Sequence record: KX009778 | Strand: one strand, 5' to 3' | Length of the DNA stretch: 64,000 nt | Source of the DNA: Escherichia phage UFV-AREG1 | In this document: one piece after another, positions 7,768 through 36,646 of the stretch | Numbering within the stretch: position 1 is the first letter of the stretch | How the letters are laid out: every line of letters starts with the position of its first letter | Made by a program: the position numbers and the translations under genes | Notes under the pieces: generated by a model | Database searches by the model: none | What the model saw: only the letters and a program-made list of their open reading frames with translations | What the model was told of the DNA's origin: nothing

Positions 7768-8238
7768 TTAATCATGTTTCCACACCCCATCGGTATTTGA
7801 CCAAAGTCGCTGATTATCTGATCCTCGCCACAGCTTTTTAGTCGGAAGATTTTTCTCATACTTCCCATCAATAATAACATCAACATATTTAAGCATTTCT
7901 AGTTGTTTAATATCTTCAAACTTATATCCTGTCCACAACCAAATGCTTTTATTGGGATAAAGATTTTTTACTGTTTGAACCACAGAGTGAATCACGTCTC
8001 TGTTATCAGGATAAAGAGGGTCACCTCCGGTTATAGTTAATCCTTCTATATAATCATTATTCAAACATTCAATCAATTGTTCTAGTGTTTCACCAGTAAA
8101 TGGAATACCATTTCTAGCATTCCATGTTGATTTATTATAACACCCTTCGCATTTATGCAAACATCCAGTAACGAAAAGAACTGTCCTGCATCCAGGACCA
8201 TTAACAAAGCAGCACGGGTATATTCTGTCATAATTCAT
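7768..8238 (-). CDS. nrdG: Anaerobic ribonucleotide reductase activating protein (radical SAM)
   Basis: 156-aa ORF with CxxxCxxC motif GCLHKCEGC; matches recalled T4 NrdG. Confidence 0.9.
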   Translation of the reverse strand: MNYDRIYPCCFVNGPGCRTVLFVTGCLHKCEGCYNKSTWNARNGIPFTGETLEQLIECLNNDYIEGLTITGGDPLYPDNRDVIHSVVQTVKNLYPNKSIWLWTGYKFEDIKQLEMLKYVDVIIDGKYEKNLPTKKLWRGSDNQRLWSNTDGVWKHD

Positions 8239-9067
8239 TTATATATTTCCAATTATAGCCTTCAACACTTTTACGTTCGCCATTTAAACATTTTAAAATA
8301 TTTCCTTTGCTAGAAATATTAAAATATTTTGCTGCGTCTGGTATATAATTAAATGTTTTTAAAAGAACACCATCTTTATATGCGCCAAATAAATTAAGAG
8401 TATATTTTTCTCGAAGACGCTGATGTTTCCTTTTCATAACCTCAGGATTTGCATACGCCAACTTCAATGAATTTCTGTGTTTTTCTTTTACTTCAGGTTT
8501 TTGCATTGCTAACTTAGTTAGCCTGGAAATTTTATTTCTAACTTCGTCAGTTTTCATTGCATTTGACAAATTTAATAAAGTTTTATTTCTAACTTCAGGT
8601 TTTTGCATTGCTAACTTAGTTAGTTCTCTATGTCTTTTTCTAAAATCGTCATCCTTCCATATATTTTTCGATAATTTTGACATAGAGCGGTGAAATAATT
8701 CCTTTTCACTGGAATACAATTTAAAAATTTCATCCAATTCATCCGCATTAAATCTATCGGTATTCGAGTTTATCATTCTATGAAAGGCATAACACATTTT
8801 ACTATTGCTTGTTTTAGCTAAATAGTAATGAGCTAACGCATGGTCATAATATGACAAATTAACAATATTCCATTTATCTGTTTTATATTCAGGAAATATA
8901 GATTTGGGAAGCACGTGATGTGCTTCCGTTTTTCCTTTTATTTTAGGATTATTATAATTTTTTGTTATCAAATCAACATATGACAATAGTAAATCATTAT
9001 TTTCTTCAAATATTAAAGCTAATTTATCATTCACAAAATCGCAAGGATAAAATCTATCATAATTCAT
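8228..9067 (-). CDS. HNH-family homing endonuclease (Mob-like), freestanding between nrdD and nrdG
   Basis: 279-aa ORF with HNH-like motif EAHHVLPKS...NIVNL...HALAH; three 17-aa tandem repeats; C-terminal GERKSVEGYNWKY motif; first 13 codons duplicate the nrdG N-terminus. Confidence 0.75.
   Translation of the reverse strand: MNYDRFYPCDFVNDKLALIFEENNDLLLSYVDLITKNYNNPKIKGKTEAHHVLPKSIFPEYKTDKWNIVNLSYYDHALAHYYLAKTSNSKMCYAFHRMINSNTDRFNADELDEIFKLYSSEKELFHRSMSKLSKNIWKDDDFRKRHRELTKLAMQKPEVRNKTLLNLSNAMKTDEVRNKISRLTKLAMQKPEVKEKHRNSLKLAYANPEVMKRKHQRLREKYTLNLFGAYKDGVLLKTFNYIPDAAKYFNISSKGNILKCLNGERKSVEGYNWKYINEL
8239..9063 (-). mobile_element. Homing-endonuclease gene insertion at the nrdD/nrdG junction
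   Basis: About 40 bp at 9031..9070 is a diverged copy of the nrdG start region 8201..8240 (both contain TCATAATTCATT); the HEG sits exactly between nrdD stop and nrdG start. Confidence 0.6.
8478..8630 (-). repeat. Three tandem ~51-bp coding repeats inside the HNH endonuclease gene
   Basis: Repeated DNA blocks containing cttcaggtttttgcattgctaacttagttag; encode repeated LTKLAMQKPEV peptide motif. Confidence 0.7.
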
Positions 9068-10881
9068 TGGTGTTTAACCCTATGCATGATTTCTTTATTT
9101 TTACCGAGATTAAATCCGCGTTCATTCGGATTTCCCAAATAACCACATGTTCTTCTTATTGTGTTCATCTTTTTAGGATCAGTTTCTCCACAGATAGAAC
9201 AAACAAATCCGTTTTCAGTAGGAGTCATTTCATGGGTACTTCCGCATGTAAAACACTTATCTACTGGCATATTAACACCAAAATAATCTAAATACTGTGC
9301 AGCATAATCCCACACGGCCTCAAGACCTTTTAAGTTATTTTTCATATCTGGAAGTTCAACATAAGAAATGTGACCGCCGGTCGCAATGAAATGATATGGC
9401 GCTTCACGAGAAATCTTTTCAAACGGAGTAATATTTTCTTCTACTGAAACATGGAAACTGTTAGTGTACCAGCCTTTATCGGTAACATCTTTTACACTTC
9501 CATATTTTTCTGTATCAAGTTTACAGAAGCGATAACAAAGGTTTTCAGCAGGAGTCGAATATAAACTAAAAGCAAATCCAGTTCTTTCAGTCCACTGTTT
9601 AAGATGAGCATTCATTTTAGTTAAAATTTCTTGTCCAATATCACGACCGACAAGAATATTCAATTCGTGAATACCAATGTATCCTAGGGACACTGAACTT
9701 CTACCGTTTTTAAATAACTCAATTATATCGTCATCAGGTTTAAGACGAACCCCGAATGCACCTTCTTGGTAAAGAATAGGAGCAACAGTTGCTTTAACTC
9801 CTTTTAAGGAACTAATTCTACACATCAAAGCTTCAAAACATAAATCCATTCGTTCATTGAACAATTCGATAAATTTCTGTTCATTGAACTGTGTTCCAAT
9901 ATAAGAATCTAATGCGATACGAGGAAGATTCAGTGTTACAACACCAAGATTATTACGTCCATCAAGAATTTCATTACCAGTCGAATCTTTCCATACGCTC
10001 AAGAAACTACGGCAACCCATTGGAGAAACCGGAACTGAAGAACCAGTAATAGCTTTATTATTCTTAACCGAAATAATGTCAGGATACATTCTTTTGCTTG
10101 CGCACTCTAGAGCAAGCTGTTTAATATCATAGTTCGGATCGTTTTTATAAAGATTAACACCTTCTTCAACAAACATAACAAGCTTAGGAAAAATAGGAGT
10201 TATCCCATCACGACCAAGACCTTTAATACGATTTTTCAGAATTGCTTTCTGAATCATTCGTTCAGTCCAGTCAGTTCCCGTACCAAATGTAATTGTTACA
10301 AAAGGCGTTTGCCCGTTTGAACTAAAAAGAGTATTTACTTCATATTCATAAGCTTGGAATGCATCGTATACATCTTTTTCTGTTTTAGATTGAGCATAAT
10401 TCAACGCATCAGCGATTTGCCATTTTTCTGCATCCTCAATATGTTTTGCATAGGTGCGTTTAACATAAGGAGAAAGTACTTTATCTACATTAGCAAAAGT
10501 CGTTCCGCCGTATTGATGGGAAGCAACCTGTGCAGTAATTTGTGCCATAATTGCGGTAGCAACTCCAATTGATTTAGGAGTTTCAATCTGTGCATTACCT
10601 AGCTTAAATCCGTTTTCAAGCATTCCTTTTAAATCTACTAAACAGCAATTAGTAAATGGAAGAGCAGGGGAATAATCAATATCGTGGAAATGGATAATTC
10701 CGCTTTCATGCGCTTTCATAATAAAAGACGGGACCATATTTTTGGCAATGTGTTTAGACACAATACCAGCCATAAGGTCCCGTTGAGTTGGAAAAACACG
10801 AGAATCTTTATTAGCATTCTCGTTTAAAAGGTCTTTATTAGTTTTATGAATCAATCCTTCAATTTCTTTTTCAATTGTCAT
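9064..10881 (-). CDS. nrdD: Anaerobic ribonucleoside-triphosphate reductase NrdD, uninterrupted
   Basis: 605-aa continuous ORF ending with glycyl-radical motif RRTCGYLG and C-terminal Cys cluster; no intron. Confidence 0.92.
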   Translation of the reverse strand: MTIEKEIEGLIHKTNKDLLNENANKDSRVFPTQRDLMAGIVSKHIAKNMVPSFIMKAHESGIIHFHDIDYSPALPFTNCCLVDLKGMLENGFKLGNAQIETPKSIGVATAIMAQITAQVASHQYGGTTFANVDKVLSPYVKRTYAKHIEDAEKWQIADALNYAQSKTEKDVYDAFQAYEYEVNTLFSSNGQTPFVTITFGTGTDWTERMIQKAILKNRIKGLGRDGITPIFPKLVMFVEEGVNLYKNDPNYDIKQLALECASKRMYPDIISVKNNKAITGSSVPVSPMGCRSFLSVWKDSTGNEILDGRNNLGVVTLNLPRIALDSYIGTQFNEQKFIELFNERMDLCFEALMCRISSLKGVKATVAPILYQEGAFGVRLKPDDDIIELFKNGRSSVSLGYIGIHELNILVGRDIGQEILTKMNAHLKQWTERTGFAFSLYSTPAENLCYRFCKLDTEKYGSVKDVTDKGWYTNSFHVSVEENITPFEKISREAPYHFIATGGHISYVELPDMKNNLKGLEAVWDYAAQYLDYFGVNMPVDKCFTCGSTHEMTPTENGFVCSICGETDPKKMNTIRRTCGYLGNPNERGFNLGKNKEIMHRVKHQ

Positions 10882-19625: not shown

Positions 19626-19657
19626 GTATAGTACCATAAAGCTTTATGCTTGTAAAC
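19626..19657 (-). promoter_or_regulatory. Early promoter within conserved promoter-stem-loop unit
   Basis: Same GTTTAC-18nt-TACTATAC architecture and leader upstream of ATPase gene. Confidence 0.6.
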
Positions 19658-19687
19658 CGTTTTGTGAAAAAATTTTTGAAAATAAAA

Positions 19688-19706
19688 GGGGGACCTCTAG
19701 GGCCCC
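19688..19706 (-). terminator. GC-rich hairpin terminator
   Basis: GGGGACC-tcta-GGGCCCC region with T-rich flank on minus strand. Confidence 0.5.
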
Positions 19707-27864: not shown

Positions 27865-28143
27865 TTATTCTTTAAATCTAATCAATTTATTCATAGACTT
27901 TGTAACTTCTGCACGAACCTCATGCAGGTTTTTAAGCTGTTCAAGACGCTGCTCATAGTAAGCAATTTCATCTTCTTCGAGACAGTCCTGTGAATCTTCT
28001 TTAAGATAACGTGCATAGTCCTGGAAAGCTTTACGGACTACTTCTTGGAAGTCATCAAGACTTTGAATTTTCTTAGGAGCAACAGATACACGACGAGGGG
28101 CAGTATAATACTCATAACCAAACCCTGCGCTTAATTGAGCCAT
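27865..28143 (-). CDS. hypothetical protein
   Basis: ORF trimmed to ATG at 28143 (TAATG overlap with upstream stop). Confidence 0.5.
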
Positions 28144-28409
28144 TAATATTTTTCCTCTGGTTGGAACACAGCACGACAAGCCCACATACTGGCTTCTTTG
28201 AGTTTCGTTTTAGCAATAGTTAACTGATCGAGGCTTTCAGCATAATTCTTTGCGAATTCACAGTCTTCACAATTATCCAGTGCTTCCCAGAATTCATCAT
28301 ATAAAGCATCAAAGATAAGTCCTAAACGAACTTCAGCGTCTTTGATAGCATTCACCTTACCGATTTTCTCTTCAGTGTGCGGCTTATAACCTTTAATGTC
28401 TTCAATCAT
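28143..28409 (-). CDS. hypothetical protein (88 aa)
   Basis: ORF track. Confidence 0.5.
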
Positions 28410-28623
28410 ATTCTACTTCCTCACCAGTACCCAAATCATATTCAACTAAACGAATAGGTTCATGAATGCCATATCCTTGAACAGAAATTTCTGTCGTAGG
28501 ATAAATTCCATCAATATCACCCATATTCCACGCTTCGTTAAATTGCTGTTCGCCTGAATTACTAAACCACTCGGCGAAAGCATTTAGCACATCTTTAGAA
28601 CCTTCAATAATTATCTTTGCCAT
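28402..28623 (-). CDS. hypothetical protein (73 aa)
   Basis: ORF track. Confidence 0.5.
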   Translation of the reverse strand: MAKIIIEGSKDVLNAFAEWFSNSGEQQFNEAWNMGDIDGIYPTTEISVQGYGIHEPIRLVEYDLGTGEEVEYD

Positions 28624-28985
28624 TACAAACTCTTGGTGAATGTACGAGCGATAACGTCGCGCTGCTGTTCCGGAGTCAGAGAGTTAAAGCGAACTGCATA
28701 ACCGGATACACGGATGGTCAGCTGCGGATATTTTTCCGGATGCTTAACTGCATCTTCCAGAGTTTCACGACGCAGAACGTTAACGTTCAGATGTTGACCA
28801 CCTTCAACTTTAACTGTAGGCTGTTGCTCAATTTCAATTTCACGGGCATGCAAACCGTAGAAAATTTCTGGGTCTACAAAAGAGTCCTCTTTAAAGGTTT
28901 TAGAGACAATAATTCGTGCTTGAATACCATCTTCAAAATAAATAGTACCTTTATGTGTGCCTTCAAGAATTTGATATGCTTTCAT
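28623..28985 (-). CDS. Autonomous glycyl-radical cofactor, GrcA/YfiD-like
   Basis: 120-aa ORF; C-terminal half [57 protein letters not shown] contains glycyl-radical motif RVSGY and matches recalled E. coli GrcA almost exactly. Confidence 0.85.
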
Positions 28986-28992
28986 ATAAACC

Positions 28993-29322
28993 TCAATTAG
29001 AAAATAAATTTATCCAAGATTGTTCTTTAATTAAAAATGGCTCAGAATCATATGCCATTAAACTCTGCGTGATTAGTCCTTTAAAAGGTCCATCAATAAA
29101 TTCCATGGTAAAATATGGAATTTTATTCATTAGCCGTGCATTAGGAGCAGTACATAAAACTCTGCATCCTTTGAATACACCCTTTTGTAATTTGTATTGC
29201 TTGGGATAAAATTCGCTCAAAATGTTATTATTTGCTAAAATTTCAAAATGATTCACCAATTTATTTTTAATAGTTTTTGGCGAAAAATAAAGATATTCGA
29301 AAAGCTGTGTGTCTGTCATCAT
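28993..29322 (-). CDS. hypothetical protein
   Basis: ORF 28993..29373 trimmed to internal Met. Confidence 0.45.
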
Positions 29323-29858
29323 TGCATTCCGATTACGAAAAACTGTGGACGAGTAATACCACCAATACAACATTTAATATTACAGCAGCAGTGTACAGTG
29401 TCAATATGGACACTATAAATCTTATCCATATCAGGAGATTTGACAGGCTCGTCAATTATATACAAAATTCGCGAAAGCGATAAACCTCTGAACTTGCTTC
29501 CTTTATTACCTATAAAACTACGCACAGAATCAGTAAATAAACGAAAACGTATATCATCATTAGAATAACGCGAAAATTCCTTTTTAATGTTATTTGCAGA
29601 AATTTTAGCGTAAGCTGAAGTATTAGAAAGAACAATAACTGTTCCACCGTCATACAACCAATTAGCGGCAAAATTAGTTACTGCAGTTGATTTACCAGAT
29701 TGACGTCCACCATCTAGTCGAAGTGTGCAATACTGCTTAAGTAAGTCTTCAAATGGCGGGATATATTCGTTTTTACAAATTTCTTCTACTCTAGCGTCAG
29801 AATGGTGTGTAAAAGCATTCATCAGGGATAGATAAGGACCAGTTAAAAATGTTCTCAT
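29319..29858 (-). CDS. small P-loop NTPase (179 aa)
   Basis: Walker A DGGRQSGKST and Walker B-like ILYIIDEP. Confidence 0.6.
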   Translation of the reverse strand: MRTFLTGPYLSLMNAFTHHSDARVEEICKNEYIPPFEDLLKQYCTLRLDGGRQSGKSTAVTNFAANWLYDGGTVIVLSNTSAYAKISANNIKKEFSRYSNDDIRFRLFTDSVRSFIGNKGSKFRGLSLSRILYIIDEPVKSPDMDKIYSVHIDTVHCCCNIKCCIGGITRPQFFVIGMQ

Positions 29859-30010
29859 TTCTTCTCTCTAAATTTGGGCCATTCCATGGCGCATGAATTG
29901 TCCATTTCTGTATTTACCCATTACCGCACTTGGGCTCGACCTTATTACAGGTTGGCGGGAATCCCTCACAGAATCATGAGGTCCAGCTTGTTCCCATATT
30001 TCTTATTTGC

Positions 30011-30484
30011 TTATTTGAATGATTTAACGTACTGAATAGAACCTTTACTATTCACAAAGGCAATTTTACCATTTTTGTTATACATGGTAGCAGTACGCTG
30101 ATAGCCATAAGTTTGTTTACCAGATTGATAACCAACTAATGCGAAATTATCTTCACCCATTTTATTCTGTTTAGCGCGAATACGTTCATGGCCATGTGCC
30201 ATAAGAACCTTAGCATCACCAGTTGCAATGGATCGACGAGTTTTTTCATCTTCAACTGTATTAACAAAATCGTCAAATGAATCAAATTTAGCATGAGATT
30301 TATTATACAGTTTTCCATCTACTGCATAATTATATCCTTGTACATCCATCTCAACTTCTGTACCATCATCCAATACAGCAGTGATTTTCTGACCTTTTTT
30401 AAATTTCAAAAGATCAGTAAAAGATTCAGCAATAATTTGAGAATTAATAGCTGCTTCAGTGATAAATTCTTGATATGTTTTCAT
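30011..30484 (-). CDS. Head internal protein candidate with capsid-targeting sequence (ipIII position)
   Basis: N-terminus MKTYQEFITEA matches T4 internal-protein CTS cleaved by prohead protease; located just downstream of e on the minus strand as in T4; body unlike recalled T4 IPIII. Confidence 0.7.
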   Translation of the reverse strand: MKTYQEFITEAAINSQIIAESFTDLLKFKKGQKITAVLDDGTEVEMDVQGYNYAVDGKLYNKSHAKFDSFDDFVNTVEDEKTRRSIATGDAKVLMAHGHERIRAKQNKMGEDNFALVGYQSGKQTYGYQRTATMYNKNGKIAFVNSKGSIQYVKSFK

Positions 30485-30538
30485 ATGTTTCCTTTAAATA
30501 TTTTAATTAGTAATTTGTCTCTTCAAGCAACTGTGAAT

Positions 30539-30568
30539 ATACTATCACAATTCTAGGAGAAAGTAAAC
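30539..30568 (-). promoter_or_regulatory. Early promoter upstream of ipIII-position gene
   Basis: Minus strand GTTTAC-18nt-TAGTAT. Confidence 0.55.
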
Positions 30569-30572
30569 AACT

Positions 30573-31541
<969 letters not shown>

Positions 31542-35698: not shown

Positions 35699-35775
35699 TG
35701 GCCAGGGTGAAAGGATTCTAACCTTTAACCTGCGGTTTAGAGGACCGCTACTCTATACAATTGAGTTACACCCCG
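35699..35775 (-). tRNA. tRNA-Arg (anticodon UCU), CCA encoded
   Basis: Hand-folded cloverleaf: acceptor CGGGGTG/CACCCTG, D-stem ACTC/GAGT, anticodon stem GCGGT/ACCGC with loop CCUCUAA, T-arm AAAGG-TTAGAAT-CCTTT; position 33 is C, which is atypical. Confidence 0.6.
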
Positions 35776-35901
35776 TAATTAGTTCACAGCAATACCTACT
35801 CCAACAATCAAGATGTCTTCACACGAAATTAAGAGAAAAGTGATCAGTTCAACCCTTATAATCGCGTCAAGTAGATATTAATGTGACAACTGTCACAAGT
35901 T

Positions 35902-35976
35902 TGGCGGACATGCATGGATTCGAACCATGGACCAATTGATTAACAGTCAACTGCTCTACCACTGAGCTACACATCC
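35902..35976 (-). tRNA. tRNA-Asn (anticodon GUU), CCA encoded
   Basis: Hand-folded: GGATGTG acceptor, TAGCTCAGTGGTAGAGC D-arm, anticodon loop CUGUUAA, T-loop GGTTCGAATCC. Confidence 0.7.
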
Positions 35977-35980
35977 AAAT

Positions 35981-36067
35981 TGGTGGGGAGTGATGGAGTC
36001 GAACCACCCGAGTCGCAATGACAATGGATTTACAGTCCACACCGCTACCTCTACGGGATAACTCCCC
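35981..36067 (-). tRNA. tRNA-Tyr (anticodon GUA), long variable arm, CCA encoded
   Basis: Hand-folded: anticodon arm GTGGA-CUGUAAA-TCCAT, 87 nt with long variable arm typical of bacterial tRNA-Tyr. Confidence 0.65.
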
Positions 36068-36076
36068 AAATTAATT

Positions 36077-36153
36077 TGGTGACCCAGACCAGATTTGAAC
36101 TGGTAACCTTTCCCTTATGAGGGGACTGCTGCTAACCATTGAGCTACAGGGCC
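36077..36153 (-). tRNA. tRNA with CAU anticodon (Ile2 or Met), CCA encoded
   Basis: Hand-folded: acceptor GGCCCTG, anticodon loop CUCAUAA, T-arm ACCAG-TTCAAAT-CTGGT. Confidence 0.65.
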
Positions 36154-36154
36154 T

Positions 36155-36230
36155 TGGTGCTGATTGACGGAATCGAACCGCCGACATCCTCATTACAAGT
36201 GAGGTGCTCTACCTACTGAGCTAAATCAGC
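36155..36230 (-). tRNA. tRNA-Thr (anticodon UGU), CCA encoded
   Basis: Minus strand GCTGATTTAGCTCAGTAGGTAGAGCACCTCACTTGTAATGAGG...GGTTCGATTCC...CACCA; matches recalled T4 tRNA-Thr. Confidence 0.85.
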
Positions 36231-36232
36231 AA

Positions 36233-36319
36233 CGGAGGCGATAGGATTTGAACCTATGAGTCGCCGGAGCGACTGCCGGTTTTCAAGACCGGTGCATTAA
36301 ACCACTCTGCCACGCCTCC
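36233..36319 (-). tRNA. tRNA-Ser (anticodon UGA), type II, CCA not encoded
   Basis: Hand-folded: acceptor GGAGGCG, anticodon arm CCGGT-CUUGAAA-ACCGG, long variable arm, T-loop GGTTCAAATCC. Confidence 0.8.
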
Positions 36320-36321
36320 AG

Positions 36322-36395
36322 TCTCCATACAAGGATTTGAACCTTGGACCTCCTGATCCCAAATCAGGCGCTCTACCAAACTGAGCTACACGGAG
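36322..36395 (-). tRNA. tRNA-Pro (anticodon UGG), CCA not encoded
   Basis: Hand-folded: CTCCGTG acceptor, D-arm TAGCTCAGTTTGGTAGAGC, anticodon loop UUUGGGA, T-loop GGTTCAAATCC. Confidence 0.8.
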
Positions 36396-36405
36396 TAAAT
36401 TAAAT

Positions 36406-36479
<74 letters not shown>

Positions 36480-36485
36480 AAACTT

Positions 36486-36572
36486 TGGTACGAGAAGTGG
36501 GACTCGAACCCACAAGGAAATCATTCCGCAGCATTTTAAGTGCTGTGCCTTTACCAATTTGACCATTCTCGC
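36486..36572 (-). tRNA. tRNA-Leu (anticodon UAA), type II, CCA encoded
   Basis: Hand-folded: GCGAGAA acceptor, anticodon arm CAGCA-CUUAAAA-TGCTG, long variable arm, T-loop GGGTTCGAGTCCC. Confidence 0.8.
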
Positions 36573-36573
36573 G

Positions 36574-36646
36574 CTGGGAATAAAGGACTCGAACCTTTGC
36601 ATCTAGCAGTCAAAGTGCTATGCCTTACCAACTTGGCTAATTCCCA
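36574..36646 (-). tRNA. tRNA-Gln (anticodon UUG), CCA not encoded
   Basis: Hand-folded: TGGGAAT/ATTCCCA acceptor, anticodon arm TAGCA-CUUUGAC-TGCTA, T-loop AAAGGTTCGAGTCCTTT; abuts tRNA-Leu with 1-nt spacer. Confidence 0.8.

Follow-up and report, generated by a model that had tools for sequence, protein, structure and literature searches.

Host-matched replacement of the glycyl-radical domain in the vs.6 gene of T-even phages, as read from Escherichia phage UFV-AREG1 and its relatives

We have studied a stretch of 64,000 nucleotides (nt) from Escherichia phage UFV-AREG1 (sequence record KX009778), which we will call the window. In its minus strand, at positions 28623..28985, lies a gene which by its sequence is the ortholog of vs.6 of bacteriophage T4 (protein Y06I): it codes for a 14-kDa protein of the GrcA/YfiD type, which stands alone and serves as a glycyl-radical spare part. 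Both the gene and its biochemistry have been described before, and vs.6 itself adds nothing new. The interesting part lies in its DNA. Sequence comparison indicates that the 167 nt encoding the structured domain of the protein have been recently overwritten with the sequence of grcA from Escherichia coli, and that in another genus of phages the same part of the gene has been overwritten with grcA from Klebsiella pneumoniae. This recurrent, host-matched conversion is what our analysis adds; the gene is an ordinary one.

The mosaic structure of vs.6 is apparent when its open reading frame (ORF) is compared by blastn with 5426 complete E. coli genomes. Nucleotides 178–363 of the ORF match grcA in all these genomes with 95.7% identity; for nt 1–177 no DNA match was found in them. 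The core of the match, nt 178–344 (28642..28808, minus strand; residues 60 to 114/115), will be called the block. It has 166/167 nucleotides (99.4%) in common with grcA in 2419 genomes and 165/167 (98.8%) in 3007: by this measure it is about as near to the E. coli alleles as those alleles are to one another. When scanned by the maximum chi-square method, the alignment breaks at nt 178 and 344: one mismatch is found in the 167 nt inside and 55 in the 103 nt outside. The chi-square value is 108, while the highest value reached in 500 permutations is 29 (Fisher p = 2e-27). Identity is 45% upstream of nt 178 (39/87 nt in the part which can be aligned) and 56% after nt 344 (9/16, nt 345–360). Past the stop codon of vs.6 there is no similarity to the host, and no host flanking DNA accompanies the block. 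The longest perfect run shared with any of 81 host grcA genes is 149 nt in UFV-AREG1 vs 23–29 nt in the phage genera which have no host-like block. No other stretch of the window is matched by megablast in E. coli chromosomes generally.

On both sides of the block the sequence is of phage type (minus strand in both cases): an AT-rich N-terminal half (N-half; 28809..28985, ORF nt 1–177, residues 1–59) and a short 3' tail (28623..28641, ORF nt 345–363) made of five sense codons (TFTKSL minus its first residue) and the stop. The tail holds seven of the eight differences from E. coli grcA, and related phages do not all have the same pattern of differences. The final codons of the gene, ACA TTC ACC AAG (28628..28641, minus strand, ORF nt 345–358), have changes which are absent from T4, RB69-type, Jiaodavirus and host sequences: ACA is found elsewhere only in contig L005, TTC and ACC only in phages T4_ev240 and HY03, and AAG, which changes E to K at residue 118, is unique. 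Elsewhere in the window a 68-nt stretch of unannotated sequence (19639..19706) has a 94% match to a single E. coli chromosome, that of strain BE104.

The block also has the composition of a host gene. Its synonymous divergence (dS) from E. coli grcA is 0.024. For the same stretch, grcA of E. coli has a dS of 0.049 to a cryptic Escherichia sp., 0.44 to Citrobacter amalonaticus and 1.1 to Salmonella. The G+C content at third codon positions (GC3) is 0.43 in the block, equal to that of the same stretch in E. coli grcA, and 0.22 in the N-half of vs.6. Local G+C content peaks at 0.49 over the block, vs about 0.3–0.4 across the surrounding 2 kb. High identity, low dS and host-like GC3 taken together indicate that the direction was from host to phage and that the event is recent; the opposite direction was considered and rejected. 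Two other possibilities were also discarded. The gene pflB is excluded as DNA donor, being only 79% identical to the block, and an assembly artefact is excluded by the presence of the block in more than 600 independent phage genomes.

A block of the same kind with a different donor is found in the genus Jiaodavirus. Compared with grcA of K. pneumoniae, the blocks of Klebsiella phage Wolf_ER13, 'Salmonella' phage PSE-D1 and an IMG/VR contig (L029) have respectively 7, 6 and 3 differences in 167 nt, vs 20 with grcA of E. coli; the two host genes differ from each other in 21 of the 167. From GAAGG (nt 181) the tract extends to within a few codons of the stop, and in this it has the same limits as the E. 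coli block. In protein the E. coli and Klebsiella blocks differ by 2 residues (LEDAVKH vs LLDAVEH). Its GC3 is 0.58–0.63, while the N-half of the same phages has 0.25 and the same stretch of Klebsiella sp. grcA 0.65. Megablast with E. coli grcA gives 623 phage records with at least 95% identity, mostly Escherichia or Shigella phages, and Klebsiella phages appear at 86–88%. With K. pneumoniae grcA there are 106 records of Klebsiella/Raoultella phages with at least 95% identity, and E. coli phages appear at 85–87%. In the genus Mosigvirus RB69 and JS09 have the E. coli block, with 3/167 differences. As far as can be read from these sequences, host-matched replacement has happened at least twice: with the E. 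coli block in Tequatrovirus and Mosigvirus, and with the K. pneumoniae block in Jiaodavirus. The host set obtained from a scan of genome contigs consists of the best 80 GrcA loci, and K. pneumoniae itself is not among them; against these loci alone the Jiaodavirus block is ambiguous (147–152/162), and the question was settled with chromosomal records found in PLSDB.

The name of a phage and its block do not always agree. The 'Salmonella' phage PSE-D1 has a block of K. pneumoniae type. Between Yersinia phage PYps32T and grcA of E. coli there is 97.9% identity, and vs.6 of Proteus phage Isf-Pm2 is 98.6% identical to that of UFV-AREG1 and probably has the E. coli block. The block may thus record the natural host of a phage. 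We have also noticed public 'plasmid' records which contain chromosomal genes such as grcA: CP125156.1 ('plasmid unnamed2', 5.37 Mb), evidently the K. pneumoniae chromosome, and NZ_CP170105.1.

The peptide encoded by the block is nearly invariant across hosts and phages, so that the identity in DNA could in principle have arisen with no transfer at all, through convergence or purifying selection on the DNA itself (shared optimal codons, a conserved RNA element). However, host grcA genes which code for the same peptide differ greatly at synonymous sites, as the values of 1.1 for Salmonella and 0.44 for Citrobacter demonstrate. The E. coli phages RB16, RB43 and phT4A have stayed at only about 80% identity, and the N-half of the same gene keeps its AT-rich codons. 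Furthermore, Klebsiella phages match the codons of Klebsiella, not those of E. coli. This host-specific pattern refutes convergence and codon bias, and we give the absence of transfer a practically negligible probability.

The way in which host sequence entered the gene has also to be considered. A sequence-only reading of the window had described the C-terminal 55 residues, including RVSGYAV, as nearly identical to E. coli GrcA and the N-terminal half as different, and had proposed the recent capture of a host gene fragment, fused to a phage-specific N-terminus. The likeness is confirmed: 60 of the 61 residues 60–120 are identical, the sole difference being K118 vs E125, and '55' is a slight underestimate. 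The N-half does differ, with 9/29 identities in residues 31–59. The alignment of nucleotides to grcA which had been suggested gives the 166/167 identities and the two junctions described above; the low identity which would have meant old divergence is not found. The host-derived and recent nature of the block therefore stands, but capture does not, and the N-terminus is not phage-specific. When the N-halves alone of nine phage proteins are compared by hhalign with those of nine host GrcA proteins, the probability of homology is 97.2% (E 2.9e-11) over all 60 columns: the N-half of vs.6 is a diverged GrcA N-half. Syntenic vs.6 orthologs, also 363 nt long, are present in Jiaodavirus (PSE-D1), Pseudotevenvirus (GAP161), Slopekvirus (phT4A) and Karamvirus. 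Further T4-like contigs are presumably those of CC31, RB16, RB43 and KP15, a tentative assignment. In the T4-like genera which lack the host-like block, the equivalent region is identical to the best of the 81 host grcA genes in 125–139 of 162 positions. A comparison of T4-like genomes in 2006 already found vs.6 among the few ORFs conserved in all of them, 6/6 (PMC1524935).

From the homology of the N-half and the presence of unconverted full-length orthologs it follows that the gene of the ancestral phage was a complete homolog of GrcA before the replacement. On sequence grounds the event is an in-place replacement inside an existing homolog, not a capture and fusion, and the patch is best read as a homologous gene conversion of the resident phage gene. 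A single illegitimate capture with in-frame fusion would agree with the sharp 5' junction at ORF nt 178 and with an N-half which has no DNA match to E. coli. It has against it the homology of the N-half to GrcA over its whole length, the orthologs of the same length and position in genera with no host-like block, the lack of host flanking DNA, with a similarity which stops before the stop codon, and the recurrence of the same limits with a different donor species. This model is largely refuted already and we consider it very improbable. RaK2, a jumbo phage, and the T5-like phages have more distant GrcA-like genes with the same MKAYQ-type N-terminus; the C-terminal blocks of these genes have fully phage codon usage (GC3 0.08 in RaK2) and no host-like tract.

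The coding sequence of vs.6 (28623..28985, minus strand), taken from the ORF list and the Pfam search, is uninterrupted, with 120 codons for amino acids, an ATG start and a TAA stop. The Pfam family Gly_radical matches residues 60–101 only, to the end of the profile (2.2e-18), and phrog_1209 matches the full length (E 1e-62, residues 1–120 vs profile positions 1–121). The product is a small stand-alone protein which lacks a catalytic barrel, with the size and domain expected for GrcA/YfiD. The motif RVSGYAV occupies residues 92–98; according to the translation and the alignments with YfiD (PDB 6OWR) and with pyruvate formate-lyase (PFL), the predicted radical-bearing glycine is Gly95 (codon GGT, 28701..28703, minus strand), aligned with G102 of YfiD and G734 of PFL. 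In DNA the ORF is matched by roughly 1500 phage records, of which the best is Escherichia phage T4_ev240, with 99.4% nt identity. In T4 (NC_000866) the gene vs.6 / T4p117 (NP_049730.1) is annotated as 'autonomous glycyl radical cofactor GrcA'.

Three proteins can be compared with the product of vs.6. E. coli GrcA has 74/100 identities by BLASTP, and its structure by nuclear magnetic resonance (6OWR, a 74%-identical protein) is matched at 2.3e-41. Both proteins have an N-half, disordered in YfiD, and a structured glycyl-radical domain, and their N-halves are homologous. The phage protein differs in being 7 residues shorter, in an N-half which is only about 30% identical and has AT-rich codons, in being encoded by a phage, and in its score below the cutoff of the GrcA equivalog. 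The second protein is PFL itself (PflB; PDB 1H16, 2PFL). Its residues 697–759, which include the RVSGYAV radical loop, match residues 58–120 of the phage protein at 9e-26 with about 76% identity. This C-terminal domain is the piece which the spare part replaces; Vs.6 lacks the catalytic barrel of about 700 residues. The closest of the three is Vs.6 of T4, also with 120 residues and encoded between vs.7 and vs.5, which has 116/120 residues identical; the changes are Q54/P, V60/I, R73/H and K118/E. Compared with T4, UFV-AREG1 has its host-like tract displaced: the start lies 3 nt earlier, with the GTT of the E. coli gene, and the end about 10 nt earlier, at nt 344 vs about 354.

The function is known from work on T4. 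According to the account in PMC8683613 of the work of the Knappe group (Wagner et al. 2001), the PFL-activating enzyme (PFL-AE) makes a glycyl radical on Y06I, which then reconstitutes PFL that has been cleaved by O2. The same source states that YfiD and Y06I are the only two validated glycyl-radical spare parts, that residues 61–127 form the structured domain of YfiD and that its N-half (residues 1–60) takes part in the binding of cleaved PFL. The experiments on PFL which the sequence-only reading had proposed, activation by PFL-AE and complementation of the oxygen-damaged enzyme, are therefore already published for T4 Y06I. By analogy with T4 Y06I and E. coli YfiD, the host PFL-AE would install the radical on Gly95, the structured domain would take the place of the C-terminal piece which PFL loses on cleavage by O2 at Gly734, and conversion of pyruvate into acetyl-CoA and formate would be restored in the infected cell. 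The best-supported role of vs.6 is thus the repair of host PFL, which would sustain the production of acetyl-CoA and formate in infected cells which meet oxygen.

The same earlier reading had the gene travelling with nrdD and nrdG, which raises the possibility that Vs.6 is a spare part for the phage NrdD, with NrdG as its activase. Both genes are indeed present in the window (nrdD 9064..10881, Pfam NRDD 1e-170; nrdG 7768..8238), Pfam Gly_radical matches both Vs.6 and NrdD, and an early comparison of genomes (PMC1524935) offers the speculation that the gene acts in nucleotide metabolism. However, they do not travel together: the distance from vs.6 is 18–20 kb, with more than 20 ORFs between. 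BLASTP of Vs.6 against the NrdD of the window finds no similarity (best E 5.7), compared with the match to PFL described above, and the published biochemistry, as reported in PMC8683613 from Wagner 2001, is activation by PFL-AE and rescue of PFL. On sequence and linkage we reject the idea, to which we attach hardly any credence.

It remains to consider whether the block of the E. coli phages comes from one event or from many. UFV-AREG1 and phages of the RB69/JK45 type have flanks which are 66–88% identical and a dS of 0.34–0.43 in the N-half, vs 96–99% identity and a dS of 0.02–0.13 in the block. The contrast at synonymous sites is 11/37 in the N-half vs 1/42 in the block (Fisher p = 0.001). 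Since the block is far more similar than the flanks and the N-half, it coalesces much later than its surroundings. We think that repeated host-to-phage events and phage-to-phage spread probably both contribute within this group, as judged from the sequences. T-even phages are known to recombine readily in mixed infection, which lends some weight to an alternative with two host-to-phage events only, one from E. coli and one from Klebsiella, followed by spread among phages with no continuing conversion. Two features of the block agree with it. The 5' limit is the same in all the E. coli phages, and indeed in each one examined, as would be expected both from a single event with spread and from repeats limited by homology. 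A phage-specific synonymous T at ORF nt 195 is common to phages with T4-type and RB69-type N-halves and points to exchange between phages. On the other side, the number of differences between the block and E. coli grcA varies among close relatives from 1 (HY03) to 10 (EcNP1), the 3' ends of the tract differ (nt 344 in UFV-AREG1, about 354 in T4, a patchwork in others), and at grcA nt 303 the phage L006 agrees with the other of the common E. coli alleles; each of these three points is weak alone. We consider it unlikely that only two events took place. In this comparison IMG/VR yielded only about seven Tequatrovirus copies.

The common 5' limit and the T at nt 195 also count against our interpretation as a whole, as do some other points. 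About 20 phage sequences were compared base by base, and the remainder are represented by bands of BLAST identity. The K. pneumoniae grcA used as reference comes from PLSDB 'plasmid' records (5.37 Mb and 339 kb), which were judged to be chromosomal by their size. The score for NCBIfam TIGR04365 ('spare_glycyl', the GrcA equivalog) is 154.7 bits (E 1.3e-45, residues 20–120 only), below the curated cutoff of 170 bits; E. coli GrcA itself scores 233.9. This shortfall arises because the diverged first 20 residues or so do not align. For the function we rely on what has been published about T4 Y06I, a protein with 4/120 residues different, and we found no measurement in the literature of the benefit of vs.6 to the phage in vivo. 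With all these points taken into account, we hold with good confidence that this is the T4 vs.6 ortholog and a PFL spare part: an old resident gene whose structured domain has been overwritten by host grcA.

The limits of the block suggest a mechanism. The domain boundary of YfiD (residues 60/61) coincides with the 5' boundary of the block. The structured domain alone is near-absolutely conserved in protein, and therefore it is the only part in which phage and host DNA are similar enough to pair. While the phage DNA replicates, it would undergo homologous recombination (gene conversion) with pieces of the DNA of the host. The conversion tracts would then be bounded by the loss of similarity between phage and host. 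This agrees with observation: the 5' end lies at the domain boundary, and the 3' end falls short of the stop by a few codons. A first event of this kind would leave about 170 bp in perfect homology, which should sharply raise the rate of further conversion, judging from the recombination properties of T4, and the block would then evolve in concert with the host gene. Such a ratchet would explain why three genera are locked to host alleles and Slopekvirus, Pseudotevenvirus and Karamvirus stay at about 80%. On balance we lean towards the view that host-to-phage conversion in strictly virulent T-even phages has a permanent hot spot in the 3' half of vs.6, which is overwritten by the grcA of their recent enterobacterial host.

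We have found no description of this recurrent, host-matched conversion or of the DNA mosaic in the searchable literature; earlier mention in subscription papers is possible. What stands out is a domain-sized tract of 167 nt which is near-identical to the gene of the current host, in surroundings which have diverged by 10–30%. It suggests that T-even phages, though they destroy the DNA of the host, still recombine with it where homology permits, and it offers a natural and quantifiable assay for recombination between phage and host. If the hot spot exists, the block would be a natural 'last-host barcode', as in the K. pneumoniae block of PSE-D1 and the E. coli blocks of the 'Yersinia' and 'Proteus' Tequatroviruses. 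Such a sequence marker of the recent host species would be useful where the laboratory host may not be the natural one, and vs.6 would be a tractable natural system to measure the recombination of T4 with the host DNA it degrades. The psbA gene of cyanophages is a related case: there too, segments are exchanged by homologous recombination between a highly conserved metabolic gene of the host and its homolog in the phage. Both are intragenic exchanges. In vs.6, unlike psbA, the exchange is limited to a domain-sized tract of 167 nt, is specific for the host species (E. coli vs Klebsiella) and takes place in strictly virulent T-even coliphages, which degrade host DNA.

The neighbourhood of vs.6 is that of a T4-like phage, with the T4 lysozyme gene e at 30573..31067 of the window. 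The order vs.8-vs.7-vs.6-vs.5-vs.4-vs.3-regB is common to the window, T4_ev240, T4 and RB69. The presence of vs.6 with regB downstream is kept in Jiaodavirus, in Tequatrovirus JK45 and in Mosigvirus JS09; in GAP161 vs.6 adjoins vs.4. The genes are tightly packed. Read from the sequence, a Shine-Dalgarno-like GAGG (28991..28994, minus strand) lies 5 nt upstream of the ATG of vs.6 (TGAGGTTTATATG) and overlaps the TGA stop of the upstream gene vs.7 (ORF 28993..29373). The stop of vs.6 overlaps the start of vs.5 (TAATG), whose ORF (28402..28623) begins at 28623. A scan of 28000..30600 for promoters and terminators gave 11 promoter-like sites vs 10.6 expected and no usable signal. Two genes downstream of vs.6, in the position of T4 vs.4, an ORF for 88 amino acids (28143..28409, minus strand) has the Pfam Acb2/Tad1 hairpin domain (7.1e-20), a family named for anti-CBASS/anti-Thoeris sponges. 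From vs.8 to the lysozyme gene e (29859..30572) there is a single ORF of 157 amino acids (30011..30484). T4 has denV, ipII and ipIII there; denV and ipII are not found between vs.8 and e in UFV-AREG1, and the UV-repair gene denV is apparently missing at this position.

Other regions of the window also have some particular features. In T4 the gene sunY/nrdD carries an intron; nrdD of UFV-AREG1 is one unbroken ORF for 605 amino acids with no intron. Between nrdD and nrdG there is an ORF for 279 amino acids (8228..9067, minus strand); its I-HmuI NUMOD-like match is weak (2.4e-4) and does not reach the Pfam cutoff, and it may be a free-standing homing-endonuclease-like gene. A cluster of ten tRNA genes is found at 35699..36646 (minus strand): Arg, Asn, Tyr, Met, Thr, Ser, Pro, Gly, Leu and Gln. 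T4 has eight tRNA genes; those for Asn, Tyr and Met appear to be extra relative to T4. The region of the tRNA-Tyr gene (about 35978..36070) has a match of about 90% to a tRNA-Tyr on an E. coli plasmid record, in a search which gave 264 matching places in plasmids overall.

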